The notes beneath the pieces were generated by a model that saw only the letters and a list, made by a program, of their open reading frames with translations, made no database searches and had not been told where the DNA came from. Source: Eledone cirrhosa (lineage: Eukaryota). From it: a DNA stretch of 64,000 nucleotides. This document shows, piece after piece, positions 991 to 59,694 of the stretch (positions within the stretch are counted from its first letter, which is position 1; every line of letters starts with the position of its first letter). The position numbers and the translations under genes are program-made. The stretch spans positions 208,072,001 through 208,136,000 of the forward strand of contig OZ024740.1 of assembly GCA_964016885.1 (NCBI GenBank), written 5' to 3'.

Positions 991-3670
991 CTTTATTGGC
1001 CACAAGGACCGACATATAGGGGAAAATACAGTGGACAGGGACCGTGGGGATTTTACACAAAAATCGAGTAGAAAATAGGAAAACATAACAATAAACAAGA
1101 AAAATACAACAATGAAAACATGAAAACTCCCCATTAGGGGGTATAACCACCCAGGGTTGACTCAGGTACTCCACCAATCCTGAACCATCCGACGCTTCGG
1201 GGGCATCTGGGAAGGGTACCCCTCCTCTCCTCAAATTCACCAGCCTACAGGCGCATGATCAGTGTAGGCCCACTCACGCGGGCCATTCTCGCCACATTCA
1301 CCCACCTTTCAGAAAATATACTGGGGGTGGGAAGGCAACCTCCGGATACCGAAGGTCGACCCTATCGAATGCTTTCGATTGATCTAAATTGATCAGAGCC
1401 CCACCGAAGCCAGGTTTACGCCCTACCCTCTCTATGATCTATCGCATGAGGTGGAGCCTGTCATGTATGGACCTGGTCGAGATTGCGTAATTTGCACCTC
1501 CCCATCCAAATCCTCGACGATAAGCGCCAACCTCTTCGCTAAAACCTTGACCAAAATCTTAAACTCTGTGTTGAGCAGAGTTATGGGCTTGAAATTATCT
1601 AATGTGACCCTCTTTTTCTCGCCTTTCCTTATTAGCGTCACTACGCCCCGGCTAACAGAACAGAGAATACTCCCGTTCTGCTGCCAGTTGAAGTAGAGCG
1701 CTTCGAGGAGATCGGAGAACAAGTCTGGCATATTTACGTAAAGCTCGTAGGGCAGACCATCCAAACCGGGTGACTTGCGCCTCGTGCAGCCGACAAGGGC
1801 ATCTTGAATTTCGGCTGAAGTAATCGGCCATTCGCAGCGCCCCGTGTCGGCCGTTGAGAGCCTCGTCAAGCCATCGAGGTAAGGACTGAAGTCCGCTACC
1901 GTCTACCCGAACAACCGAGAAAAGTGGTGGCGAAAAGCCTCCCACATACACCTGGAATCGCTCAGCTCGTGACTGAGGCGTCCGTTAAAGACCGAATCGT
2001 GGTGTTATTACCATGCTGCGCCCCTGCCACGTGGACCCATTGAACAGCTTTGGTTCCCTCGTTTCTCAGAGCATGCGCCTTAGCCCTGACGATGCAGCCT
2101 CAGTGTTTCGCATTGAAGAATGGTCTAATGCCATTCTCGCCGCTAGCACGTCAGTTGCAGTGCCACTACAAATAGCCTCGTCTTAGCTACCAACTCCCTC
2201 TCTTTTCTATTTTTCTCTAACACTAATTCTTTGCTAAACCCTATCGAAATTACTCTAATCACTCTTTTGAGAGCCCCTCACCATCTGTTGTTGACGACAC
2301 CTCTTGTGAACTTCTGCTCAACTAAATTGTTGGCTCGGTCCCTATAAGCCTTACGTGCCGGAAATGACATGTTCAGCTTCCATTAACCAGGTCCTAACCT
2401 ACGCGTCTCAACTAGGTCGATCATACAGATCACAAACTTGTTATCTGAATAAGTGACCGTTTTTAAGCGTGGACAGCCTACACTATTTCTATCTATTTTC
2501 CTAATTAAAATCCTGTCTATATACGATCTAGACGACCCTATGCGGTTGATCCAGGTCCACACTGGCGCATTATGGAAATCTAGTTGGTACCTGTCAGACA
2601 GTTCTAACTGGCTGATCAAGTAATGTAGCTTTTGCACCCACGGCTCTTATCGGCTCCTCCCACACAATCCCAGCGTGCGTCTAAGAGGCCCTTCCAGTCC
2701 CCCTCTAACAGTACAGGGTGAGACGTGCCCAGAAAGGCTTCCAGGCGTCTAAAGGGGTCCGCCCGTCCGGCCTGGGTAGGAGCGTAGACGGCCACCAGTC
2801 TAAAGGCACCACCTTCGTTATTGTTCACGTCCAAGACCACCAACTTACCATCCGGGTCTCGGAAGATCGATTTTACCTCGAGATCCAGGTCTTGCCTAAA
2901 CAGCACTGCCACCCCACCTCCCATTCCCAGCCGACTAACAGATGCGGATATCTGATAGTCGTCGAACATGGGGCTAGTGCGCACCTGTCGGAAATCCTAG
3001 TCTCGCTGGCGGCAACTACATCCATTTCTAGAGACCTGAGGTTGTTGACCAGATGACCCTACTTCCATGACGACCCCAGGCCTCGAACATTTAAATTTTC
3101 TACTCTTAATATGGCCATGTTAGCAGGCTAAAAGAGAGAGGAAAGTTGAGGGCAGAAGGCTTGCAAATGGGTTTTTCTCCGCAAACGAAACAATATGGCC
3201 TTTTGACCTCAGTCATAATATGTTCTGGAGACGGATATGGTTCGGGATTGTTTTTACATTCTCGCGCCTGATCTGGAAAGGTATCTCCAGGTCAACCCCG
3301 GGCCTGTCCTCCCTGACAGCCCTTGTAACCTCTATCAGGAGGGTATCCGTCCGGGACAGTTAAGTTGGCCCAGGTTTGCTCTTGTTTGATGAGTTTCTAG
3401 GCCTGGGCCAACTTTTCATCTTTATTCGTGAGGACCATGCTGAAGCATGGTCTCTTTTTGGCTGCTGCCGCAGCAAAAGTATTCTTGTTGTTGGTAATGT
3501 TCTTGTTGTTGTTATTGTTGATGTTGTCGTTGTTGTTGTTGTTGTTGACGTTACTCTTGTTCCTGTTGCAGTTGGTTTTATCTTTGGTGCCGCCGTTGTT
3601 GTTTTCGGAGTAGTTGGTTTTGTTGCTGTTGATGCTGTCACTGTTCAGGGCGTTCCTGATGGTTTCCTTT
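990..3670 (-). mobile_element. Degenerate Tx1/L1-clade LINE (ORF1 end, APE endonuclease, partial RT, 3' UTR)
   Basis: ORF2 starts at 3118 with MAILRVENLNVRGL; contains GGGVAVLF, VAVYAP, LEGDW, SYIDRIL, KSPGLDGLPYE, NFKPITLLNTEFKIL and SKAFDRVD; many stops and frameshifts; ends GGCCAATAAAGA. Confidence 0.88.
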
Positions 3671-3984
3671 TTCCTTCGAATGAAACAGTCCTAGTCCTGT
3701 AGAAGTCATTTCTATATTAAATCTTATATATATATATATTCATTCAATGGCCAATGGATAAAATTCCAGAGTAACAAGATTCACCACTTAGCCATTAGAC
3801 GAATATATATATATGTGTGTGGGGGGGTGTGGGGGGGGGGTGTATTTTTAAATATAAGGATAAAGATCCCATAATTCCTTGTGGAGTTGTAGAGGCACCG
3901 TCAAAAGGCGTGTTTAGGGCACATTTAAACCTTGCGGAGCCCAACCCTCTCCAGGCCTGAATACAGCCGATGTTTTCTATAGAG

Positions 3985-4140
3985 GAAGAATTGATTCCAG
4001 TATTGGACTGGTTCATTTTTTTTATCGACCTCGAAAGGATGAAATGCAAAGTTGACCTCGGCGGGATTTGAACTCGTAAAGAGGTGGGACGAATACCCCG
4101 TAAGCATCTATCCGACGTCTTAATGACTCTCTCAATTCGC
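3985..4140 (-). mobile_element. tRNA-derived SINE
   Basis: B box GAGTTCAAATCC plus the same core as 680-860. Confidence 0.7.
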
Positions 4141-8972: not shown

Positions 8973-9060
<88 letters not shown>

Positions 9061-9192
9061 GTGTGTGTGTAGGAGGTGAGTTTTATTGTAGTACAATAAA
9101 GCAATGCAAATATCGGATAAGTAGCACTCTACAGTTTGTAGGACTGGAGTATAAATAATATAAGATCAAAAGATGGTTAAAAGAGTTCCAAG

Positions 9193-9263
9193 TATTTTAT
9201 TATGTGCATTTCAAAAACAAATATCATCATGAGATGATATCTGCGTTTTCATCAGATAAAATA
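9193..9263 (-). ncRNA. Type I hammerhead ribozyme (family C)
   Basis: tattttat CTGATGA aaacgcagatatcatc-tcat-gatgatatttgttttt GAAA tgcaca TA ataaaata. Confidence 0.85.
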
Positions 9264-10200
9264 GGGATACATGATATGAAGGTTAAAAAACACTTGTGAA
9301 TAGTGAAGTTTTAAATCAACATATGAAAAATAATTTAAGATTGATGTGTGATATTGGGAAAAAGTGAGGGGGTGGAAAGGGTGAGAAAGAGGAGGAGAAG
9401 AGAGTAGAAAATGGTGGGGGAGGAGTATAAGAAGGAAGGATGAGAGATGAGGAGAGATGGGTGATAGAGAGATTTTTACATATTACATAAAAACAAACCC
9501 TAACTAATCTCCTCTATTATATTATATTATATTATTACCATTAGAAAATATTTCGTAAACATATATTTTGATGTTAGATTTTTTCTTTCTTAAACATTAT
9601 TGTCTTCTTTGTTTTCTGCGCTCATTTGTAAACAAACTATTTACATATATTACGCACACATATTACATTACATAAAAACAAACTTAAATACTAAATAATT
9701 CTTCTAAATTCATAACTCATACTCTCTTCTACTTCTTTTCACAGTATATCCTTAATAACATTAATCTTTTTATTTTAATAATACATATTAACAATTTCTT
9801 TTCCTCGCACATATTATTAAACCCTTCAATATACAAACCTTAATTTAATATTATTCTTAACCCCCTTTTTCTCTTCATCAACTGTTACTTTCAAATTCTT
9901 TTAAATTATCTATTATCTTCCAATGGCTTTTTAACTTCTCTCTGTGAGAGAATATATATTTTTCTCAGTTGTAAAGGCTATCTGTCTCTCTCTATCACCC
10001 ATCTCTCCTCATCTCTCATCCTTCCTTCTTATACTCCTCCCCCATCATTCTCTACTCTCTTCTCCTCCTCTTTCTCACCCTTTCCAACCCTCCCCCTCAC
10101 TTTTTCCCAATATCACACATCAATCTTAAATTATTTTTCATATGTTGATTTAAAACTTCACTATTCACAAGTGTTTTTTAACCTTCATATCATGTATCCC

Positions 10201-10271
10201 TATTTTATCTGATGAAAACGCAGATATCATCTCATGATGATATTTGTTTTTGAAATGCACATAATAAAATA
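10201..10271 (+). ncRNA. Type I hammerhead ribozyme (family C)
   Basis: Same motif as 9193-9263 on the opposite strand; 8-bp stem I, intact core. Confidence 0.85.
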
Positions 10272-10587
10272 CTTGGAACTCTTTTAACCATCTTTTGATC
10301 TTATATATATATATATATATATATATCAGGTTTACACTCTACTAACGTATTGAGTACCTTACCAACTGTGGTTACCTCCGCTTGAACCGGACACACACAC
10401 GCACACACATTTATATATATGTGTGTGATTCAACATGAATAGGGACATAATCCTTACACACAAATGGATACAGACACCCACATACATACCTACATACAAA
10501 CATACATACACACATACACACTTACCATATACATACATACATACATACATACATACATACATACATACATACATACATACATACATA

Positions 10588-19712: not shown

Positions 19713-19858
19713 ATTGTTTCTACTTTAGGCACACGGCCAGCAATCACCCAGTGCATTGCTGGTACTTTATTTTATCGACCCTGTAAGGATGAAAGGCAAA
19801 GTCAACCTCGGCTAATAATAATAATGGTTTCTTTCAAATAGATATAATGGTTTCTTTC

Positions 19859-19925
<67 letters not shown>

Positions 19926-19930
<5 letters not shown>

Positions 19931-22290
19931 AGGAATATGGGAGCAGGATGTTAGACATAATGTCCAGGCAGGGTGGATTGAGACAGTACAGAGGGAGATC
20001 GGTGAGCAGGCACAACAACAAACTGATTTGAGTATCACAGTTGAAACTCTTAAGGGGCAGGCCAAAAAACTAACCAACTGGAAATCACCAGGCCCAGATG
20101 GTGTGCAGGGGTATTGGATTAAACATTTAACATCCCTCCACCCGAAGCTGACGGCCATGTTCAATGACTGCTTGGTGTCGGGTGAGGTGCCAGAGTGGTT
20201 GACAAAAGGTACCACAGTTCTGATAATGAAAGACCGAATCAAGGGTAATGATGTTACCAACTATAGACCTATCACATGTCTGTCCGTAATGTGGAAACTG
20301 TTGACGAGCATTGTGTCTGAGGAAATCTACCATCACCTCCACACAAACAACTTGTTACCGGACGAACAGAAAGGATGCCGAAAGAAGTCACGTGGTACAA
20401 AGGACCAGTTACTTATTGATAAGATGGTAATGGGGAATTGCAGGAGGAGACACACTGATCTTGCCATGGGATGGATAGACTACAGAAAGGCATTTGACAT
20501 GGTGCCTCATTCTTGGATCACCAAAAGCCTGGAGATCTTCAGGGTGGCAGATAACATCAGACAGTTGCTAGGCAGGAGTATGGGGTCCTGGGAGACAGAG
20601 TTGACATCAACTGGAGTATCCTTGGGAAGCGTGAAGATCAAGAGAGGTATCTTCCAGGGAGATAGCCTGTCCCCTCTGTTGTTTGTCCTTGCCCTCATGC
20701 CCTTGACCATTATGCTGCGAAAAGTGAGAGCAGGATACAAGTTGGGAAGGGGAGAGCTTACCATCAATCACCTCCTCTTCATGGACGATCTTAAGCTCTT
20801 CGGGAAAAGTGAGAAGGAGTTGGATGTGCTTGTTGACACTGTCCGTATTTTCAGCAGTGATATATGTATGCAGTTTGGTATTGGTAAATGTGGAGTCATT
20901 GTGATGAGGAGGGGTAGGTTGAGCAGAAGTAACGGGATCCAGATACCAACAGGTGAGATGATAAAGGAAATTGACTGAGGAAGGATACAAGTATTTAGGC
21001 GTTCTGGAGGCTGATGGCATAAAGAACAAAAAAATGAAGGAATTGTTAAGAACTGAATACATTCGGAGAGTAAGGAGCGTATTGAAGTCACATCTGAACA
21101 GCAGAAATGCCATAAGCGCAGTAAATTCCCGAGCTGTGTCTATTATTAGGTACAGTGCGGGAATTCTGAGATGGAATGTTGCTGAAGAAAAAGAAATGGA
21201 TAGGAAGACTAGGAAGCTATTGACTATCTACAACATGTTCCACAAGAGGAGTGATGTCGATAGACTACCTAAGGAGATCTGAGGGTGGAAGAGGTCTTAT
21301 CAGCATAGAGGACTGTCTTCAGATGGAGAAAAACAACCTATACAAATACGTGACCTATAGTAAGGAGCCAATGCTCAGAACTGTACTGAAGGAGGGGACA
21401 GTAGGCCAGGGGATGTCCAAGGAGGAAATAACATCAAGGAGGAAGAGCAGCCTTAAGGGAAAATCCCTTCATAGTACCTTCTTTGAGAAAACTGAATTTA
21501 GAGATCCACAGACATGGAACTGGTTGAGAAGAGGAGACCTCAAAAAGGCTACAGAAGGAATGCTAATGGCTGCGCAGGAGCAGGCCCTCAAAACGAAGTG
21601 GTTGAAGCACCATATTTACAAGGAGGAGGCTAGCCCACTGTGCAGGATCTGTGGAGAGAGAGAGGAGACTGTGGCTCACATTGTGTCCGAGTGTAAACAC
21701 CTAGCCCAGACCCACTATAAGGGCTGGAGACACGATGTGATGGGCAGGGTGATCCACTGGCACCTGTGCAAAGTAAACAATTTACCACACTCTGAGAAAT
21801 GGTATGAGCATAGGCCAGAGGCGGTAATGGAGAACAATCAGGTGAAGGTGCTGTGGGATTTTAGGATACAGACGGACAAAAAACTGGAACACAATAGACC
21901 TGACCTGGTGGTTGTGGACAAAGAAAAAAGATCGTGTCTGATTGTGGATGTGGCCTGCCCGTTCGACACGAGAGTACAAGAGAAGGAGAGGGAGAAAATT
22001 AACCGATACCAGGACCTAAAGTGGGAGGTGAAAAGGATTTGGAACTGCCATGAAGTCAAAGTGATCCCGATTGTCATAGGCGCACTGGGGACTATCTCCA
22101 AAAGTTTCCAGGGATGGTTACAGAAAATCGGCCCCTTCACGCTTTTTGGAACGCTTCAAAGGGCATGCTTGCTTGGAACAGCAAGAACCCTCCGATACGT
22201 CCTGAATATCTGAGGCTGCAGGTAGTGGCTTGATATTCAATCCAACGGACTTTCCAGTTAACCAACATCAATGACTGAGATTCAAGGAAT
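19926..22290 (+). mobile_element. 5'-truncated R4/Dong-like RLE LINE in (TAA)n
   Basis: RT (WKSPGPDG, DYRKAFD, GIFQGDSLSP, FMDD), CCHC knuckle CRICGEREETVAHIVSEC, RLE RPDLVV..VDVACP..K; two frameshifts; (TAA)n on both flanks. Confidence 0.93.
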
Positions 22291-23699: not shown

Positions 23700-26600
23700 C
23701 TCGATAAGAGTGTTTAAATGTCGAACCTAAACAGTTCGAATAACGGTGAAACGAGATTGGTCCATTTAAATTAGATGAACAAAAACTGGCCGGGCAGGCT
23801 CGGGTAATAAGAACTAATGGGGGGATAAGCGAGCTGGAACTGGAGGAACTGAGCAGAGAGATTAGCTTGGAGATGGAGAGTGGAGTATGCCAGGCAAACG
23901 AGCCAGTGGGAAATGAAGGTGAAGAGTTCGAGAGAACGGAGGAACCACCCGAAGCAGACAATGATCTGAATGCTGAGATAAATAATACCTGGAACAGAGA
24001 TACGGCCACTGAGGAGATGAATGCTGACGGGCTAGGACAAGATTTGGTTGATATCCTAAACTTAGTGGTAGATGAATTGAACAATGATAGTGGGAGACCT
24101 ATGAACCTAAGATTTGTAGACAGGAAAAAGTTAAAAGAAACAACAGATAAGGTAAACAAAGTCATCCCATACCTTTAGGCGAGGAGCCTTCACCAGTGCA
24201 ACAATATCCTCAAAGCAACAGCAAATACGTTGAGGAAACTACTTGGTATAAAAGCGAGAGGAAACAACAGACAAGAAAGAGCAGAGCCTTGGTGGAAGAA
24301 ACGACTGAGTGGTCAAATCAGGGAAATGAGAAATGACATTGGAAAGCTTGAGTCCCTACTGAATGGAACACTAAAAAACATAGACACTAAAAATAGACTG
24401 GAAATAAAGTACAAAACTAGGAGGAAAAAGCTAAATATTATCATAGAGGAACTGAAGCAACGCATTGTAGCAAAGAGTGCAAAAATCAGGCGATACGAGA
24501 ACAGAGTCAGTCAGTATAGACAGAACCGCATGTTCGACAACAACCAGAAGATGCTGTTTGGACAGCTTGAAGGGAAAGAAAGAGGCAACGACTTGATCCC
24601 TGAGGCGGAACAAACTAAAACATACTGGAGAGGAATATGGGAGCAGGATGTTAAACATAATGACCAGGCAGTGTGGATTGAGACAGTACAGAAGGAGATC
24701 AGTGAACAGGCACACCAACAAACTGATTTGAGTATCACAGTTGAAACTCTTAAGGGGCAGGCCAAAAAACTAACCAACTGGAAATCACCTGACCCAGATG
24801 GTGTGCAGGGGTATTGGATTAAAAACATAACATCCCTCCACCCGAAACTGACAACCATGTTCAATGACTGCTTGGTGCCAGGTGAGGTACCAGAGTGGTT
24901 GACAAAAGGTACCACAGTTCTGATAATGAAAGACCGAATCAAGGGTAATGATGTTACCAATTATAGACCTATCACATGTCTGTCCGTAATGTGGAAACTG
25001 TTGACAAGCATTATGTCTGAGGAAATCTACCATCACCTCCACACAAACAACTTGTTACCGGACGAACAGAAAGGATGCCGAAAGAAGTCACGTGGTACAA
25101 AGGACCAGTTACTTATTGATAAGATGGTAATGAGGAATTGCAAGAGGAGACACACTGGTCTTGCCATGGAATGGATAGACTACAAAAAGGCATTTGACAT
25201 GGTGCCTCATTCTTGGATCACCAAAAGCCTGGAGATCTTCAAGGTGGCAGATAACATCAGACAGTTGTTGGGCAAAAGTATGAAGTCCTGGGAAACAGAG
25301 TTAACATCAACTGGAGAATCCTTGGGAAACGTGAAGATCAAGAGAGGTATCTTCCAGGGAGATAGTCTGTCCCCTCTGTTGTTTGTCCTTGCCCTGATGC
25401 CCTGACCAGTGTACTGCGAAAAGTGAGAGCAGGATACAGGTTGGGAAAGGGAGGGCTTACCATCAATCACCTCCTCTTCATGGACGATCTTAAGCTGTTC
25501 GGAAAGAGTGAGAAGGAGTTGGATGTGCATGTTGACACTGTCCGTATTTTCAGCAATGATATAGGTATGCTATTTGGTATTAGTAAGTGTGGAGTCATTG
25601 TGATGAGGAGGGATAAGTTGAGCAGAAGTAACGGAATCCAGATACCAACAGGTGAGATGATAAAGGAAATTGACTCTGAGGAAGGATACAAGTATTTGGG
25701 CGTTCTGGAGGCTGATGACATCAATAACAAAAAAATGAAGGAATTGATAAGAACTGAATACACTCGGAGAGTAAGGAGCGTATTAAAGTCACATCTGAAC
25801 AGTAGGAATGCCATAAGTGCAGTACATTCCCGAGCTGTGTCTATTATTAGGTACAGTGCGGGAATTCTGAGATGGAATGTTGCTGAAGAAAAAGAAATGG
25901 ATAGGAAGACTAGGAAGCTATTGACTATCTACAATATGTTCCACAAGAGGAGTGATGTCGATAGACTCTACTTAAGGAGATCTGAAGGTGGAAGAGGTCT
26001 TATCAGCATAGAGGACTGTGTTCAGATGGAGAAAAACAACCTACACAAATACGTGACTGATAGTAAGGAGCCAATGCTCAGAACTGTACTGAAGGAGGGG
26101 ACAATAGGCCAGGGGATGTCCAAGGAGGAAATAACATCAAGGAGAAAGAGCAGCCTTCAGGAAAAATCCCTTCATAGTACCTTCTTTGAGAAAACTGAAT
26201 TTAGAGATCCACAGACATAGAACTGGTTGAAAAGAGGAGACCTTAAAAAGGCTACAGAAGGAATGTTAATGGCTGCGCAGGAGCAGGCTCTCAAAACGAA
26301 GTGGTTGAAACACCACATTTACAAGGAGGAGGCTAGCCCACTGTGCAGGATCTGTGGAGAGAGAGAGGAGACTGTGGCTCATATTGTATCCGAGTGTAAA
26401 CACCTAGCCCAGACTCACTATAAGGGCTGGAGACATGATGTGATGGGCAGGGTGATCCACTGGCACCTATGCAAAGTAAACAATTTACCACATTCTGAGA
26501 AGTGGTATGAGCATAAGCCAGAGTCGGTGATAGAAAACGATCAGGTGAAGATGCTGTGGGATTTTAGGATACAGACGGACAAGAAACTGGAACACAATAG

Positions 26601-26989
26601 ACCTGACCTGGTGGTTGTGGACAAAGAAAAAAGATCGTGCCTGATTGTGGATGTGGCCTGCCCATTCGACACGAGAGTGCAAGAAAAGGAGAGGGAGAAA
26701 ATTAACCGATACCAGGACTTAAAGTGGGAGGTAAAAAGTATTTGGAACTGCCATGAAGTCAAAGTGGTCCCGATTGTCATAGGCGCACTAGGTACTATCT
26801 CAAAAAGTTTCCAGGGATGGTTAAAGAAAATTGGCCCCTTCACGCTTTTTGGAACGCTTCAAAAGGCATGCTTGCTGGGAACAGCAAGAACCCTCCGATA
26901 CGTCCTAAATATCTGAGGCTGCAGGTAGTGGCTTGATATTCATTTCAACAAACTTTCCAGTTAACTAACATCAATGACTGAGACTCAAA

Positions 26990-29273: not shown

Positions 29274-31069
29274 GTATCTGATAATTGTTTTCGTTTCCTA
29301 TCTTGTGTGGCTGTCTACGAATTAAAATTTTACATTAACGTTAAAGCAGTCTTCTTTTCAATTTCATATATTGAGTTTCTGATTTTAACATAATTCTTAT
29401 TTGCCATCATCCTTCAAGGTATCTGGAACCATATCTATTATTTTAGTCTATATCCATTAGCTAAATTTGAAGTTAGCAATTATTTTCTACTTACGTTTTT
29501 ATTGTAATATGATGAATTCGTATACATCAACTTACAGTTTTACGTACTTTGCAATTATATTGAAAAACTCAATTTCTCACGATCATGCTAATCTCTGAAA
29601 TTTTATTTATTAAATTTTCTTTATCGCATTTTTCTCAAACTATAGAGAACTTTATAAACATTTTAAAGAATACATTTAAAAGATGTGTCATTTAAATGAA
29701 GCTAAATCTAATTTCAACAATATGGTTTCTAAAATTAAAAAAAAACACAGAGCTATCAACAAAACTTAACATCAATAAAGATGTTTTAAAAAACAGTGGT
29801 TCGGTTAGAAATTTATCGCAGCCATATATGAGGAAATGCAATTGAGTTTCGATCACCTTGTTTAGACATTAGTATGAAGAAGAAATAGTCGTATCAATTG
29901 GTTTTGAGTGAAGTGTAAAAGATTCCTTTACTTACGAATGTGTTTCTATTGAGTGACTTCGTGCAACATTTAGTGAGTTTGAACTGTCTTTTGTAGGATT
30001 CAAATATGTTTAGTGAGATTGAGCTATATTTGAAGGAATTTGAGCTGTTGTTGCTGAGATTTGGATGTATTTGGTGAATTTAAGCTTTGTTTAGTGAAAC
30101 TGAGTAGCATTTAGGGAGGTGTGTAAGTTTCAACTACGTTTGGTGTAGTTTAATGTTTTCATACTTATTATTTGTATTATTATCTGTATTCAAAGTTGAA
30201 CTGTAAGATTTAGCGAGATTGAACTGTCAATTTGCCTTTAACTACCAATCCATGACTCTTAACAGCATAAAAATGAAATTTTCGTGAAACTCTATTGTGA
30301 TAATAATTCTAATGAAATGCACTGCGTACGTATTTCATTTCATTTCGAAAATGACCTCGAATTTGAAGAAATTTAATAAAATAACTCATTTTTTCATTAT
30401 AAATCTGCCGCTTGGAACATAACATAACAATTACCTTCTTAAATAAACTTATGAAGAATGTGTTTACGTTAAATAAGAACAGTTAAATGTGAACTATTTA
30501 GTGTCATAGAACTGAAGGAACTTGGGGCTATTCCAAGAGGGATTTCTTTAACGGATTTGTGAGAGGGTGAAGAGCAATTCCATGAGCATTTTCTAGTGTG
30601 AGCATGACTGGTGTGAGGACTTAAAGTTATTTTCAGATTGGAAACCTAGCTCAAATGCTTGCAACGTAGTAGCTTTCGCTGAAAGCTCTCAAGAAACAGA
30701 CGACTTTTAAACCGGTCGAAGGATTAAATCTACTACACAAGAATAGGAACGTTTCCTCCGACGAGCTTCCGAAGTTGTTACCTACAAGAATCTCAATCGG
30801 AATAATTAGTCGAACTGAGGATATGGAAGTAGAGACTGGCCAAAATAGCACGCAGTAGTTTAGAAACCGGGAGCAAGGTGTATAGACAGGAAGATATCAT
30901 ACAAAGTTTTGTATTTATGATGTCTATATATACAAGCATATGCAACTGGCCTTATCTAACCTTTTACACATTGCATCTTTCATTTAACTTTTATATATAT
31001 ATATAAACAAGAAAAAATAACAGGCATATAAACATACACACCACATACACCCAAATACTTACACACGTG

Positions 31070-31150
<81 letters not shown>

Positions 31151-31154
<4 letters not shown>

Positions 31155-33460
31155 AGAAAGAAGAATGACACGGTTTGCTATACAAAAAAGGTTTTTAATC
31201 ACATTGCTGACAATTAGAATATCCCGCTTATCCTCAAACCTAGAAAGTTTTAATGAACATGCTAACTATTATAACGCGGCATTACATAGGGCCGGACACA
31301 AAGAAAAGCTCCAGTTTATAACGAATAAAGACAACTCAAACAAACCTACTAACAATGACACCAACCGCTCACACAAAAATAGAGGTAACAGGACTAGACA
31401 TAGAGTTAAGCACGTACCACCTAGAGTAAGTGGTCCAAACACCAATAATGTAAACCCTGGAAACAATAGAAGAATCAGAGAAAGAAAATACCTGTGGTTC
31501 AATCCAATCTTCAACTCCTCTGTAAAAACTAGACTGCCGTCTACGTTCTTTAAACTAATAGATAAACACTTCCCTATATCACATAGATATCATAAAATAC
31601 TCAATAGAAAAACTATAAAACTCTCATACTCTACGGCTGCAAATATAGAATCACACATACGCAAGATCAACCACAGAAATACCTCTAAGGAATCCGCCCC
31701 ACCTATGCGCAACATAGCACCAAATTATAAACATAAACACATCACAGTATCACAACCGCAAACGCATACAAGCACGCAGCAACAAAACCTCAACGGGCAT
31801 GAATCACAACCCACTTATAGCAGTGTACAAAACAGCAGTGTGGAAGCTACACGGAATAACACCTCAAACTGCAACTGTCACCTACCGGATAGGTGCTCAT
31901 TGGCGAACAGATGCCTTGATTCGAGCCTAGTGTACATGTGTACGGTGAACTCGGGCAACTCCACTTGGCATTACATTGGATCCACCGCGGTAACGTTTAA
32001 AAAAAGATGGTATGTGCACAGACACTCGATGAAGAACCGTGCACTTATAGGTTCTACAACCCTCGCCAAAAACATCTGGGAACTTAAGGACAATAACACC
32101 AACTACAATATCAACGGGTCGAGGTTGTCGGCCGTAAGGGCATACAGTACCGGTATGTCCTATTGTAGGCTCTGTGATCTTGAATTACTGTATATCCTTA
32201 GGAATGAAAAAAGGCTACTCAACAACAAGATAGAAAGATCAATTTTCTGCAGACACAGGATCGCCACTAAATTCACAAGATTTAAGCCACCGTGAATCGA
32301 ACCAACATAACTTATCATTCACCATATGATATCCACACTATTACACAGACCACCACAGAACTATAATACTCATTAAGCAGATTCTAGTCTTCTTAATTCT
32401 ATACCACAGTAATGTCTGCAAATATCTTATCAACCCATAAATATATCCCTTCTCAGCTGCTGTCAACACAACTTCCTCACCCTTGATTCTCAACAGATGA
32501 ACCTAAGTCCAAGTACATTTTCAGAATACTACCACAGTAAAACATAACCTTCCTCCTGTTGTTATAATTGTAGTCAGCATGTTTTCTCTATATATATATA
32601 TATATTGCCTCCTTAACCTCTGTATTAACTTACCTATTATATTGCTACTCTGTTAATGTTATCTTATACATGTATGTTATTGATGATGTGAAAGCTAAAC
32701 AACCCCATGATTCGAACTAACAATCCCTTCATCTAATATAGACCACATAAATATTGAATCCACTTCACACCACAAAAATTACTATCCTCACTACAGTGAT
32801 GAATATTTTATCTGTCAGATAATAAATAATTCTTACGGTCACCAGACCTACGGTAAAGGAAATGATACATTGTTTAAAGCCCCGGCTTATCTCTACACTA
32901 TATATAATACACCTCATGACAGCTTTTACATGTCAATTTCATACATCTGCCTCGTATCAGCTCGTTTTACATGCTAAAGTCGTAAGTACACTCTATGTCT
33001 TACTTAGATTGATATTGTTATTATTTCAAATTATTTATTGCTAGCATTGTTAGTATTTTTGTTATTGTTCTGATTGAATGACATTACTATATATAGAAGC
33101 CATGCCTGTGTACTCCCTTCATTCTCGCTAGCTCTGATGAATTGACAGGTTACAACTATGTATTGGTGATCGATTGACGCGAAAACAGGCGGGTAGCGAT
33201 CTCTAGACCTATCAGTTCAGAGAAACAATTGTCAGCAATGTGATTAAAAACCTTTTTTGTATAGCAAACCGTGTCACTCTTCTTTCTTGATTTATCATTA
33301 CTCCAAGTGTTAACAACATAGAAATCAACGCGTACTCGCAACATCACTATGGAAACGCCTTGTTGAGTCAAACTTAGCCAAGCGTTGATATCATCCACTA
33401 CTCGGAGTACCCTAACTGGACTACACCTAAATGAACCTCCTATAACAATAATCTGTTATC

Positions 33461-33463: not shown

Positions 33464-33502
<39 letters not shown>

Positions 33503-33529
33503 TCAAAAGATGGTTAAAAGAGTTCCATG

Positions 33530-33600
33530 TATTTTATTATGCGCATTTCAAAAACAAATATCATCATGGGATGATATCTGCGTTCTCATTAGATAAAATA
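33530..33600 (-). ncRNA. Family C hammerhead with core G5A (probably inactive)
   Basis: CTAATGA instead of CTGATGA; the rest is conserved. Confidence 0.7.
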
Positions 33601-33960
33601 CGGAGACATGATATGAAGCTTAAAAAACACTTGTGAGGAGTGAAGTTTTAAATCAATATATGAAAAATAAATTAAGATGGATGTATGAGATTGGGAAAAA
33701 GTGAGGAGGGGTTGGAAAAGGTAAGGAAGAGGAAAAAATAAGAGTAAAGGATGGTGGGGGTAGAGTATAAGAAGGAAGGATGAGAGAGGAGGAGAGATGT
33801 GTGATAGAGAGAGAGATAGCCTTTACAACTGAGAAAAAATATTGTCTCACAGAGAGAAATTAAAAAGCCGTTGGAAGATAATAGATAATTTAAAAGATTT
33901 TGAAATTAAAAGTTTTTTTTGCATTGCTTTATTGTGCTACAAGAAAACTCACCTCCTACA

Positions 33961-33992
<32 letters not shown>

Positions 33993-37463: not shown

Positions 37464-40400
37464 GTGGGAAAGTAAAAAATCGGAGAATAGACCGTTAAAA
37501 CATGTTTATTTAAAACAGCACCTACGTACGTTTCGCTCAGTTGGGCTTCTCAAGGGCATAAATAATCACAAGTGTTCCTTATATTGCTCGGAAAGAGTTT
37601 TTGGGGTTAAATCCACATCAAGGTTCATTGCTCGCAAAAATATCTTGTTTTGATTTTGCAGCAGGTCAAGGGAGGTAACTCTGGCCGGTGTTAGGGAAGT
37701 CTTTCCCGGACAATTTTTATTTTTTATTTTTATTTTGCCGCATCTGTTTGTCTGAGGCTGGGTCTGGTATGCAAGGATAGTTTCCTGGGTGTTATTTTGC
37801 AGCGCCTGCCCGCCGGGGTGTTAAGACTTGTTGCAGTGAGATCCAGTGTACGGTTTCACTCCTCATCCTTAACCCATCTGAAGAAGGATATTTTTAAGCG
37901 ATGTGTACAACTTATCGCTGTTTCAGCTCTGCTGTTGATGAGCTCGTGGGGTGCAGTTATGACGTGGGAAGGTGCAGTTATGAATAGGGAAGGATATAGT
38001 CACCAGCTTAGAAATAGAAAAATACACTAACCCGTACGTCCCTCTGACGCCTTAATTCTCTCTTAAGGATCACAAATATGACTTTAAAGAAAACCCCTCT
38101 ATTAGACTAATATGCCCCTCTACATCAGATATAGGTAAGATTAGTAAAGTGATCCTTGACAGAGTACTACTGGAGCTTAATAGAAAGGCTAAGGTCTGCC
38201 TCTGGGGCAACACCGACCAGGTCATAAATTGGTTCACCGAGTTGCAGGATAAAGCCACCCTGAAATTCATCCAGTTTGATATAGATAGTTACTACGCCTC
38301 TATCTCCTCCATACTCTTAAATAAGGCACTTATCTTAGCTAGATCTAACACTAGCCTCACTAAAAAAGAAATAGACTTAATTCTAGCGGCGCGTAGAACC
38401 ATTATCCAGTTCGAAGGCTCCCACTGGACCAGAACCGACCGTCCTGATAACTTCGATGTCACGATGGGGTCCAGTGACTCAGCGCAAGCAACTGACCTGG
38501 TCGGGATATACCTCCTACATAAGCTTAGGGAAGAGATACCGGCCCTACAAGGAGGTGTATATAGGGACGACGCCCTGTTTACCGTTAGGAACCATAGCTC
38601 CCGTAGGAGAGAGAACCTTAACAAACATATACACAGGTTCTTCAAGTCATACGGCCTATCCGTAACTATGGACCTCAACCACAGGGTTGTCAACTTCCTA
38701 GACGTGACCCTGGTGTTGAGTATGGGCTTATACAAGCCATACCATAAGCCTGGAGAGTGCCTCTCTTATATTAATTATGCCTCCAACCACCCTAAGCAGA
38801 CTCTCAACTCCATAGTCTATAGTATCTCACATAGAATCTCGAGGCTATCCGCCAATGAGGATATCTTCAACCAAGCGGCAAATTACTACAATAGGGCCCT
38901 GATAAGCGCCGGCTTTAACCGAGGAATTTCCTACATCCCTAACGCTAGCTCTAGAAACCACCCCCCTCATAAAACAAACGTTATAGTAAGCCATACCTAT
39001 AACCGATCACGCAGCGACCTCGTTGAAGTCGGATATAATAGAATAGATAACCGCACCAAAGATCACGACCCCGGCGACGGTGAACACTGTAGATTACTCG
39101 AACTATTCCCCTATTACAAAACCAACAAAGGCGACGGCCTACTACCTACGCCTTCCAACCAACATCTTCGCGTACATAAACATGGAAGAGATAGGAAGAG
39201 TGCACCCGAGCATAAAGTGAAAGGGGCACCGAACGGGCGACTGCGCATTAACACACATAAGAGCGGTCACCTAGAAGGAACGACCCGTAGCAAAAGTACA
39301 AGGACACGTAATCGCCACCGTAACGTCCTATGGTTCCAACCCCCTACTCTCGAAGTGTGGCCTCCAACATACCCCGGATGTTCTTCGAAGCCTTAGAGAA
39401 GAACTTCCCGCCCAACCATAGGTATAGAAAAATTCTTAATAGGAACAATATAAAAATATCCTTCTCTACTACTCCTAACCTAGCAGACATCATAGGAACA
39501 ACGAACCACAGTAAGATCACCAAGACACAGCACCTCGACACAGACGCACCTACACCTGACAATAACTATATCGGCCTTAACAACTCCCTGGCAGCATCCA
39601 ATAGTGTTGGCAACGGCATTCGCAGACGCAACCAGCATAACTGCGAAATGACTGGGGAACATGCAGGACATGACGGGCGGAATAACAATCGCACCACCCC
39701 GCGTGCTGTGGGTTGTAATGGTGCTAACGACAGCTGCGATAGCTTAGGTAGCAACGTAGGCAGCAACAATGATAGCCTTACCGTGGGAAATAGACGGAAC
39801 CGCGACAGAAATTGCAACAGCCGCGACAGAGGACGCTGCCCCCTTAGAGGATACTGCTTGACTGATAGGGTTATATATAGATGCACTATTACTAGCCACA
39901 ATAGCGTTAAACATTATATAGGGGCTACCTCCGGCCCGTTCAAAATTAGGTTTCGAACACATCTCCACTCTTTCACAAATAGAAAACTAAGGCACTCCAC
40001 TTCGCTCGCGGACTACATCACATCACTAAAGGACTTAAACATCAGCTTCTCCACGCACTGGGAGATTGTCGGCAGGGCTGCACCGTACAACTTCAAGAGG
40101 AAATGCCATCTTTGCCTCGTGGAGCTCTACCACATCATAACTGCACCCGACGAGCTCATCAACAGCAGAGCTGAAACAGCGATAAGTTGTACACATTCGC
40201 TTAAAAATATCCTTCTTCAGATGGGTTAAGGATGAGGAGTGAAACCGTACACCGGATCTCACTGCAACAAGTCTTAACACCCCGGCGGGCAGGCGCTGCA
40301 AAATAACACCCAGGAAACTATCCTTGCATACCAGACCCAGCCTCAGACAAACAGATGCAGCAAAAAAAAAAAAAATTGTCCGGGAAAGACTGCCCTAACA

Positions 40401-40934: not shown

Positions 40935-42101
<1,167 letters not shown>

Positions 42102-55780: not shown

Positions 55781-56135
55781 TATTATAAAATAACAGGAGG
55801 CTGGACTGGTGTAATTCCTTAAAAGGTTTATTATACTATGATAATTTCAATGACCGCGTTCAGTATGAATCCGGTGACATCATCAGGTATTCAAAATTTA
55901 ACAAAGGAAAATAATAGACAAAATCCATGGGGCTGAAAAGCAGAGACATGAGGGCGGCCGAACATTTACCAGCTTCTAGCCCGGTAAGCCTCCCTCGAGT
56001 CTTTGTTAAATTTGTTAAATTTCGAATACCTGATGATGTCACCAGATTCATACTGAACCCGGTCACTGAAATGACCATACTATAATAAACCTTTTAAGGA
56101 ATTACACCAGTCCAGCCTCCTGTTATTTTATAATA
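55781..56135. repeat. Fold-back with a hammerhead in each arm
   Basis: Arms 55781-55905 and 56011-56135; atac CTGATGA..GAAA ttatca TA gtat (55833-55890, minus) and the mirror at 56026-56083 (plus). Confidence 0.82.
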
Positions 56136-58372: not shown

Positions 58373-58449
<77 letters not shown>

Positions 58450-58453
<4 letters not shown>

Positions 58454-59495
58454 AGGAGGTAAGTTTTATTGTAGCACAATAAAGCAATGCAAATATCGGA
58501 TAAGTAGCACTCTACAGTTTGTAGGACTGGAGTATAAATAATATAACATCAAAAGAAGGTTAAAAGAGTTCCAAGTATTTTATTATGCGCATTTCAAAAA
58601 CAAATATCATCATGAGATGATATCTGCGTTTTCATCAGATAAAATAGAGATACATGATATGAAGGTTAAAAAACACTTGTGAATAGTGAAGTTTTAAATC
58701 AAGATATGAAAAATAATTTAAGATTAATGTGTGATATTGGGGTGAGGGGGGTTGGAAAGGGTAAGGAAGAGGAGGAGATGAGAGTAAAGATTGGTGGGGG
58801 GTGGAGTATAAGAAGGAAGGATGAGAGAGGAGGAGAGATGGGTGATAGAGAGAGACAGATAGCCTTTACAACTGAGAAAAATATATATTGTCTCAGAGAA
58901 GTTAAAAAGCCGTTGGAAGATAATAGATAATTTAAAAGAATTTGATATTAAAAGTTGATGAAGAGAAAAAGGGGTTAAGAATAATATTAAATTAAGGTTT
59001 GTATATTGAAGGGTTTAATAATATCACCCATATCTCCCCCTCTCTCATCCTTCCTTCTTATACTCCTCCCCCACCATTCTTTACTCTCATCTCCTCCTCT
59101 TCCTTACACTTTCCGACCCCCCTCACTTTTTCCCAATATTACACATCAATCTTAAATTATTTTTCATATGTTGATTTAAAACTTCACTATCCACAAGTGT
59201 TTTTTAACCTTCATATCATGTATCCCTCTTTTATCTGATGAAAACGCAGATATCATCTCATGATGATATTTGTTTTTGAAATGCGCATAATAAAATACTT
59301 GGAACTCTTTTAACCATCTTTTGATCTTATGTTATATATATATAAGATCAAAAGATGGTTAAAACAGTTCCAAGTATTTTATTATGCGCATTTCAAAAAC
59401 AAATATCATCATGAGATGATATCTGCGTTTTCATCAGATAAAAGAGGGATACATGATATGAAGGTTAAAAAACACTTGTGAATAGTGAAGTTTTA
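58450..59495. mobile_element. Triple alternating array of PLE-like family C with three intact hammerheads
   Basis: HHRs at 58576-58646(-), 59229-59295(+) and 59375-59443(-), all CTGATGA..GAAA tgcgca TA. Confidence 0.88.
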
Positions 59496-59694
59496 ATATA
59501 TATATGTGTGTGTGTAGTGGGGGTTGGGGCACGACGGTTGAGCTCTTTCCGTTTTGACAGCAAATTCCCGATTTTCTACTATATTTACTACGAATGTTTT
59601 AATGATGCCGATAATTCAGAATAGTAGATTTGTGTTCGGTTTTTATGAAATGGACGTGAATATATATTTTTTTAAACTCTCAAACATCGGTTTA

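Follow-up and report, generated by a model that had tools for sequence, protein, structure and literature searches.

Alternating hammerhead motifs in a probable composite of Penelope-like element ends in Eledone cirrhosa

Inverted pLTRs are typical of Penelope-like elements (PLEs) (PMC8557442; PMC3846280), and self-priming on a sense template would yield tail-to-tail repeats (Arkhipova et al., PMC3846280). Hammerhead ribozyme (HHR) motifs on opposite strands of inverted PLEs are already in print: the Hydra-clade element Penelope-13_HM has an inverted 5' copy with HHRs on both strands (supplement of PMC8557442), and opposite-strand HHR pairs lie 100–700 bp apart in Schistosoma (PMC4209133). Minimal PLE hammerheads with an unstable helix III were inactive as monomers and showed low activity as dimers (Cervera and de la Pena, PMC4209133). 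The ribozyme of an anole PLE cut only with its protein and was dispensable for insertion, and no read ended at its cut (PMC11167929). Animal non-LTR retrozymes are head-to-tail tandem repeats of 170–400 nt for which circles have been shown (PMC7229834; bioRxiv 10.64898/2026.07.22.740005), and viroid-like RNAs replicate without a DNA counterpart, with circles of both polarities accumulating (PMC10162972).

The window analyzed here is a stretch of 64,000 nt from the genome of Eledone cirrhosa. An earlier note on this DNA had proposed that three hammerheads near its right end form a viroid-like ambisense template that could release a rod-like RNA of ~800 nt. By the features tested, the locus is an inverted PLE insertion. 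It is very probably a composite of three 5'-truncated PLE 3' ends, placed in the order -/+/- in a TA microsatellite, with a rod that is likely an unselected by-product of inversion.

Hammerhead motifs and rod fold at the locus

Scanned with a descriptor on both strands, the window yielded five hammerhead cores, where 100 shuffles gave 0.07 on average and 2 at most. Three of them lie at the focal locus (Table 1), reading from 59437 on the minus, 59235 on the plus and 58638 on the minus strand. The other two, at 9255 (minus) and 10209 (plus), form a -/+ pair in a head-to-head insertion of the same family (9017–10319); with an older copy that has no intact motif (33482–33988), the window holds three loci of this family, including the focal one. 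The three focal motifs have the same sequence throughout, both strands of stem I included, and each shows the core and the three helices of a type I hammerhead, namely a 6-bp stem I, CUGAUGA, GAAA, an AUA cut triplet, a stem II of 16 positions with one C-U mismatch, and a helix III of 2 bp closed by a palindromic GCGC loop. The alternation of three intact motifs claimed in the earlier note is borne out with exact coordinates, intact being meant of the sequence, as is the distance of 799 nt between the predicted minus-strand cuts.

No Rfam hammerhead family reached its gathering score in the window, and among the 59 Rfam matches at E values up to 10 in 58400–59600 there was no hammerhead, only hairpin-type miRNA models below gathering score. 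The descriptor, together with conservation between families, is therefore what supports the hammerhead call. Among 35 distinct variants, collected with a core-dependent pattern, changes in stem II mostly keep pairing, and two other repeat families among the fetched loci share the core and stem I but differ in stem II (L038:222-372, L043:1163, L056:110 and L062:2669); one of these other-family motifs is also present as a -/+ pair, 150 nt apart. Same-strand motifs of the focal family occur 733 nt apart at L015:853 and 1586. The pair 10.1-11.1 is A-U or G-U in the family motif, and an A-U opens stem II at the focal locus. Such a change would be expected to lower hammerhead activity. A helix III of 2 bp suggests a ribozyme of dimer type, presumably weak.

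The segment between the minus-strand cuts is largely self-complementary, as had been noted before, through an inverted repeat of 58533–58847 with 59022–59340 (93% complementary). Folded as the minus strand, its 799 nt reach -497 kcal/mol (z = -40.5 against 20 shuffles), and 81% of it is paired when folded as a circle; the model thus supports the rod expected of the monomer. The segment has a GC content of 33%, and its longest ATG frame has 26 aa on the minus and 74 aa on the plus strand. The earlier note lacks a second and tighter inverted repeat, which pairs 59176–59330 with 59342–59496 (155 nt, 99%) around a loop of 11 nt. Elsewhere in the window, beside a TA run, an unrelated inverted repeat of 125 nt (55781–56135, 94% complementary) holds no HHR motif in the descriptor scan.

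Such an outline invites comparison with a functional viroid-like or retrozyme-like template, that is, a circle with ambisense ribozymes that is copied from RNA to RNA or re-inserted as a unit. Size, rod and one motif per polarity match the criteria of screens for viroid-like RNAs (PMC10162972), and escape from retrozymes is a proposed origin of viroids (PMC8781251). Against this, the pairing is that of a recent inverted duplication (93–99%), in which helices run without a break for 61 and 57 bp, and for this and the further reasons given below we lend the idea almost no credence.

Table 1. Features of the focal locus, in window coordinates.
Feature	Position	Strand	Basis or remark
Left-hand remnant of the target (TA)n microsatellite	58386–58449		sequence; 3' end of arm A abuts
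Arm A, 5'-truncated PLE 3' end (pLTR) with long tail of ~100 nt	58450–59024	-	matches natural element copy
HHR2, second minus-strand type I hammerhead motif	58578–58644	-	descriptor scan; predicted cut directly after H17 at 58584
Hypothetical 799-nt monomer between minus-strand cuts, near-perfect fold-back rod	58584–59382	-	folding
A/B head-to-head junction, 3-nt microhomology	59022–59024		sequence, genome search; single copy in genome
Arm B, 5'-truncated PLE 3' end in opposite orientation, short 3' end	59022–59330	+	matches natural element copy
Plus-strand type I hammerhead motif	59229–59295	+	descriptor scan; predicted cut directly after H17 at 59289
Short TA-repeat spacer, loop of the tail-to-tail B/C hairpin	59331–59341		sequence
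Arm C, short end of a PLE in tail-to-tail orientation to B	59342–59496	-	2 differences from B in 155 nt; rare variant common to both
HHR1, first minus-strand type I hammerhead motif	59377–59443	-	descriptor scan; predicted cut directly after H17 at 59383
Right-hand remnant of the target microsatellite, a TA/TG repeat	59497–59516		sequence

The parent element and the build-up of the array

The exact 66-nt HHR motif has 186 copies in the genome, and the exact 37-nt sequence following the cut has 1,903. In locus L031, reached upstream from a near-identical copy, a truncated copy in inverted orientation and a partial tandem are combined with a broken ORF, a pLTR and a tail. At a second locus, L079 (G000:C4:169499000-169508900), two intact ORFs of 809 aa stand in direct tandem between three HHR-bearing pLTRs, which are spaced 3.94 kb apart and show 0 mismatches over the 155 nt compared; the HHR lies on the ORF strand within the pLTR, and its cut site is 185 nt upstream of the ATG. 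As arm A is 78% and arm B 85–88% identical to the repeats of this intact element, it represents a sister subfamily. A protein search of the genome found many copies with open frames of ~820 codons, many 821-codon frames tying in score (150 scored of 28,495 candidates), which suggests that the L079-type subfamily was recently active.

The protein model (pLDDT 84) has telomerase RTs at five of its top six structural ranks, the TERT matches in Foldseek having E values of about 1e-7 with low TM-scores of 0.3–0.4. Pfam gave no significant match on the full 809-aa ORF, and the C-terminal GIY-YIG match is weak (E 0.006, below the curated cut-off; 2 of 34 alignment members). RT motifs are visible by eye, as are RWT, DKT, CNCRIKNKC, CNLC and CLH, to be set beside the Hydra-clade signature of an RWK-like motif, DKT, a CxCX5C linker, and CxxC and CxH around E and N (PMC8557442). 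PLE pLTRs from partial tandems, an inverted 5'-truncated copy and a tail at one end are all present in L031 and L079, and (TA)n insertion is seen in the flanks of the focal locus and at most sampled short 3' ends. The parent is assigned to the EN+ PLEs, with a telomerase-like RT and a GIY-YIG domain predicted in one ORF, and the motifs read by eye would place it in the Hydra clade. Searching with the full ORF returned 70 relatives at 31–40% identity, one of them labelled Argonauta hians (38%); a homologue search with a 244-aa RT piece found no relatives, and a PDB sequence search with the protein alignment no meaningful match.

Other elements are present in the window. ORF pieces of two further PLE families, with Hydra-like motifs by eye, lie at 31021–32295 and 38056–40229. 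In two adjoining non-LTR retrotransposon copies at 19848–22213 and 23750–26916, which we take to be of R4/R2 type, an RT can be made out by eye, as can a restriction-like endonuclease at the C terminus. A tRNA-like match (49.7 bits) at 41074–41144 on the minus strand may be a tRNA-derived SINE.

Aligned to a natural element copy used as a yardstick, arm A corresponds to positions 3452–4083 (95.6%) and arm B to 3631–3950 (95.9%). Both have their 3' ends on TA repeats and are joined head-to-head through the microhomology. Such head-to-head pairs were found in 11 of the 25 sampled loci (the distinct loci among the first 30 matches listed), and like A/B they typically combine one short and one long 3' end. 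They differ by 0–8 of 155 nt; A/B is at the upper end of this range, so the order of events is uncertain. The A/B junction has a single match in the genome at up to two mismatches, from which it follows that the 799-nt unit was not re-inserted in recognizable form, and no tandem of the unit was found in the genome; both observations speak against a functional template.

Over 155 nt, B and C differ at 2 positions, C and A at 5, and A and B at 5, whereas the mean for random pairs among 27 sampled copies is 8.4 differences, with 24 of the 351 pairs at 2 or fewer. Three other tail-to-tail pairs differ at 12–20 of 155 nt. As B and C share a rare variant (8 copies genome-wide versus 994 of the common form), arm C likely came from B's own sequence and is best regarded as a likely local derivative of B. 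We suggest that A/B arose in one ordinary insertion event and that C was derived from B, most simply through fold-back self-priming at the palindromic TA end; a local duplication or conversion is an alternative for arm C. An assembly artefact, in which a fold-back read duplicated arm B, is highly improbable. It would account for a 155-nt inverted repeat of 99% with an 11-nt loop, and the junctions are bridged by no independent data; against it, B and C each have one private difference, C ends in a TA/TG remnant followed by other sequence, and nine other loci show the same tail-to-tail pattern, several of them with divergent arms. The exact short tail-to-tail pattern is thus found at 10 loci, including the focal one. 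The proposal of the earlier note that PLE-style inversion built the array is supported by arms that are inverted pLTR ends, joined head-to-head and tail-to-tail.

Three full motifs occurred at one of the 11 short tail-to-tail loci examined (the 10 and L082), the focal locus, and this rarity of the combination counts somewhat against an unselected by-product. A second -/+/- triplet, at L047:15-2698, has three full HHR motifs with 1,472 nt between the minus-strand cuts and 59% pairing; it consists of two neighboring, unrelated insertions whose copies are 18 differences apart. The genome-wide count of triplets proposed earlier was made on a sample, in which this is the one further case in 25 loci (95% interval 0.1–20%), the loci being a non-random set from the first-listed matches on contig C1. 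Triplets of this order recur without fixed length, and the differing length and make-up of L047 are a further point against a functional template.

Of 30 sampled copies, 15 have their 3' end at one fixed site and 14 at another, ~100 nt away. At the other end, 10 of 30 copies (L043-L072, G000 C1) start ~124 nt upstream of the HHR cut, at yardstick position 3774–3776, which is about window position 59166 on arm B. This hotspot and the two 3' ends would fit run-off cDNAs that were begun at two internal RT starts and reached the pLTR transcription start on uncut RNA. None of the 30 sampled copies has its genomic 5' end at the HHR cut, the nearest being 29 nt off, and head-to-head junctions are no more frequent there (1) than at a control position (1). 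Within these samples, the inserted copies therefore came from uncut RNA.

Two further observations concern the element's ends. At L040:1222-1627, six short fragments alternate (-/+/-/+/-/+) with TA loops between them; where they meet head-to-head, they do so at the palindrome of helix III, which is a few bases upstream of the HHR cut. The long 3' end adjoins a splice-donor-like AG/GTAAGT: in 58450–58520 on the plus strand, antisense of the long tail, this stands at the start and an AG follows ~59 nt on, possibly by chance.

Predicted release of the 799-nt segment

On the minus strand the arms are ordered C, antisense B and A, so that one antisense arm serves two sense ribozymes. Costs of the active fold were taken from an equilibrium secondary-structure model without kinetics, tertiary contacts or proteins. 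In ensemble folding, the active fold costs 6–7 kcal/mol in the isolated motif; in the precursor it costs 11 kcal/mol for HHR2, 18 for HHR1 and 104 for both. Once HHR1 is cut and the 5' piece is gone, HHR2 costs 78 kcal/mol, and HHR1 costs 28 after a cut at HHR2; compared with the isolated motif, these values support the expectation that the rod would sequester the ribozyme after cutting. In a growing chain, the MFE penalty of HHR1 is 7–13 kcal/mol until ~93 nt past the cut; by 103 nt it has climbed to 30 kcal/mol, and by 153 nt to 88. The plus-strand ribozyme costs 88–95 kcal/mol if transcription starts upstream of arm A, which again disfavors a functional template, and 7–10 kcal/mol for ~90 nt with a start in the spacer.

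At all times, this shared antisense arm is predicted to block one or the other minus-strand ribozyme. In a minus-strand read-through transcript, HHR1 would first be locked in the 155-bp C:B hairpin with HHR2 partly free, at most one cut would be made, and the product would be long double-stranded RNA, with no circle released. The motif would be of dimer type, but both copies cannot be free together, which counts against a working template. The viroid-like ambisense template of the earlier note is unsupported: the antisense arm is predicted to block one minus-strand HHR, the unit is single-copy, and the L047 triplet has another length and came from two unrelated insertions. That note had held that a second HHR blocked by the antisense arm would speak against its own proposal; such blocking is found, in the folding model only. 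In three runs from a single sample the repeat family is present, but their coverage misses the unique flank at 59510–59690 and none of the listed pieces spans the locus, which leaves these runs uninformative on the focal locus.

Some points count against an inert by-product of inversion. All three motifs are unmutated, HHR1 could fold until ~93 nt past its cut so that an early cut is conceivable, and re-pairing of the 5' piece with antisense B could free HHR2. A chance PLE triplet might then release some 799-nt monomer, whose duplex-held nick would be ligated into a dumbbell circle without a role. We consider this unlikely. The route would lead from an early cut at HHR1 to one at HHR2, perhaps with the PLE protein's help or through dimerization with another PLE transcript. 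It would draw on the intact cores of all three motifs, a window of ~90 nt for HHR1 in the growing chain, an HHR2 whose modeled cost, with C paired to B, exceeds that of the isolated motif by just ~5 kcal/mol, and a circular fold that places both ends next to each other on a continuous complementary strand. However, HHR2 would cost 78 kcal/mol once the 5' piece leaves, stem II opens with A-U in place of the conserved G10.1-C11.1, and the absence of copies beginning at the cut (0 of 30), with junctions there as at the control, argues the same way. Pol II advances tens of nucleotides per second. The cut would thus be needed within seconds, from a motif class without detectable monomer activity in vitro (PMC4209133), although protein-assisted cleavage is described for another PLE HHR (PMC11167929) and RtcB circularizes retrozyme monomers in vitro (PMC7229834). 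A double cut by way of an early HHR1 cut, shielding of antisense B by the 5' piece and then HHR2 is, on the folding costs, unlikely.

A bolder extension would make PLE inversion a standing factory of viroid-like architecture in animal genomes, with triplets releasing ambisense dumbbell circles as a one-step route to proto-viroids. It would call for perhaps tens of triplets per genome, ordered cuts with help from the PLE protein, and ligation at the duplex-held nick, and we regard it as very unlikely. We retain the composite of three PLE ends, with its rod as a probable by-product of inversion.

Comparison with known systems

The family described here adds one more Hydra-type PLE family. In a host genome, ordinary inversion of a retroelement can yield the signature for which viroid-like RNAs are screened, a rod of ~800 nt with one ribozyme per polarity, which calls for caution in such screens; if a circle were made, it would be a missing intermediate for the escape of viroid-like RNAs from retroelements (PMC8781251). 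With identical intact tandems, two fixed 3' ends and a sharp 5' hotspot upstream of the ribozyme, the family may be of better service to the study of PLE mechanism. A literature search, to which most subscription journals were closed, found no description of -/+/- PLE hammerhead triplets as templates for circles.

The closest parallels are the Hydra-clade PLEs (Craig et al. 2021, PMC8557442; Penelope-13_HM, Hydra-1_Obim). In common with the elements studied here, they have a single ORF carrying an RT plus a GIY-YIG at the C terminus, an RW- motif, DKT, the CxCX5C linker, and CxxC and CxH around a conserved E and N. They also share (TA)n targets, a sense-strand HHR in the pLTR, and an inverted 5'-truncated copy that brings HHRs onto both strands. 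The present elements differ in a repeat unit of 3.94 kb where the norm is under 3 kb, in RWT/RWI where the clade has RWK, and at the focal locus in the third, tail-to-tail arm; unlike the Hydra HHRs listed in the supplement of PMC8557442, the motif has a 16-position stem II and a 2-bp helix III with a palindromic 4-nt loop.

Minimal PLE hammerheads (PMC4209133) are likewise of type I, with a long helix II and a tiny palindromic helix III, and reside in dispersed truncated PLEs. They have G-C at 10.1-11.1 instead of A-U or G-U, and the three alternating motifs set the focal locus apart from them.

Animal non-LTR retrozymes (PMC7229834; bioRxiv 10.64898/2026.07.22.740005) resemble the locus in being non-coding, PLE-related and low in GC, with type I HHRs and a segment bracketed by two same-strand motifs. 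Unlike them, the focal locus is one inverted composite, and the arm enclosed in it lies antisense to the ribozymes. Identity as a retrozyme was rejected, since there are no head-to-tail tandem units and the A/B junction is unique.

With avsunviroids, ambiviruses and other viroid-like RNAs (PMC10162972), the locus shares the rod, the 800-nt size class and one ribozyme motif per polarity. Where those RNAs replicate without DNA, the focal array is chromosomal, made of PLE fragments, and a near-perfect inverted duplication of one ribozyme that is predicted to block itself; the likeness to viroid-like RNAs is in outline only.
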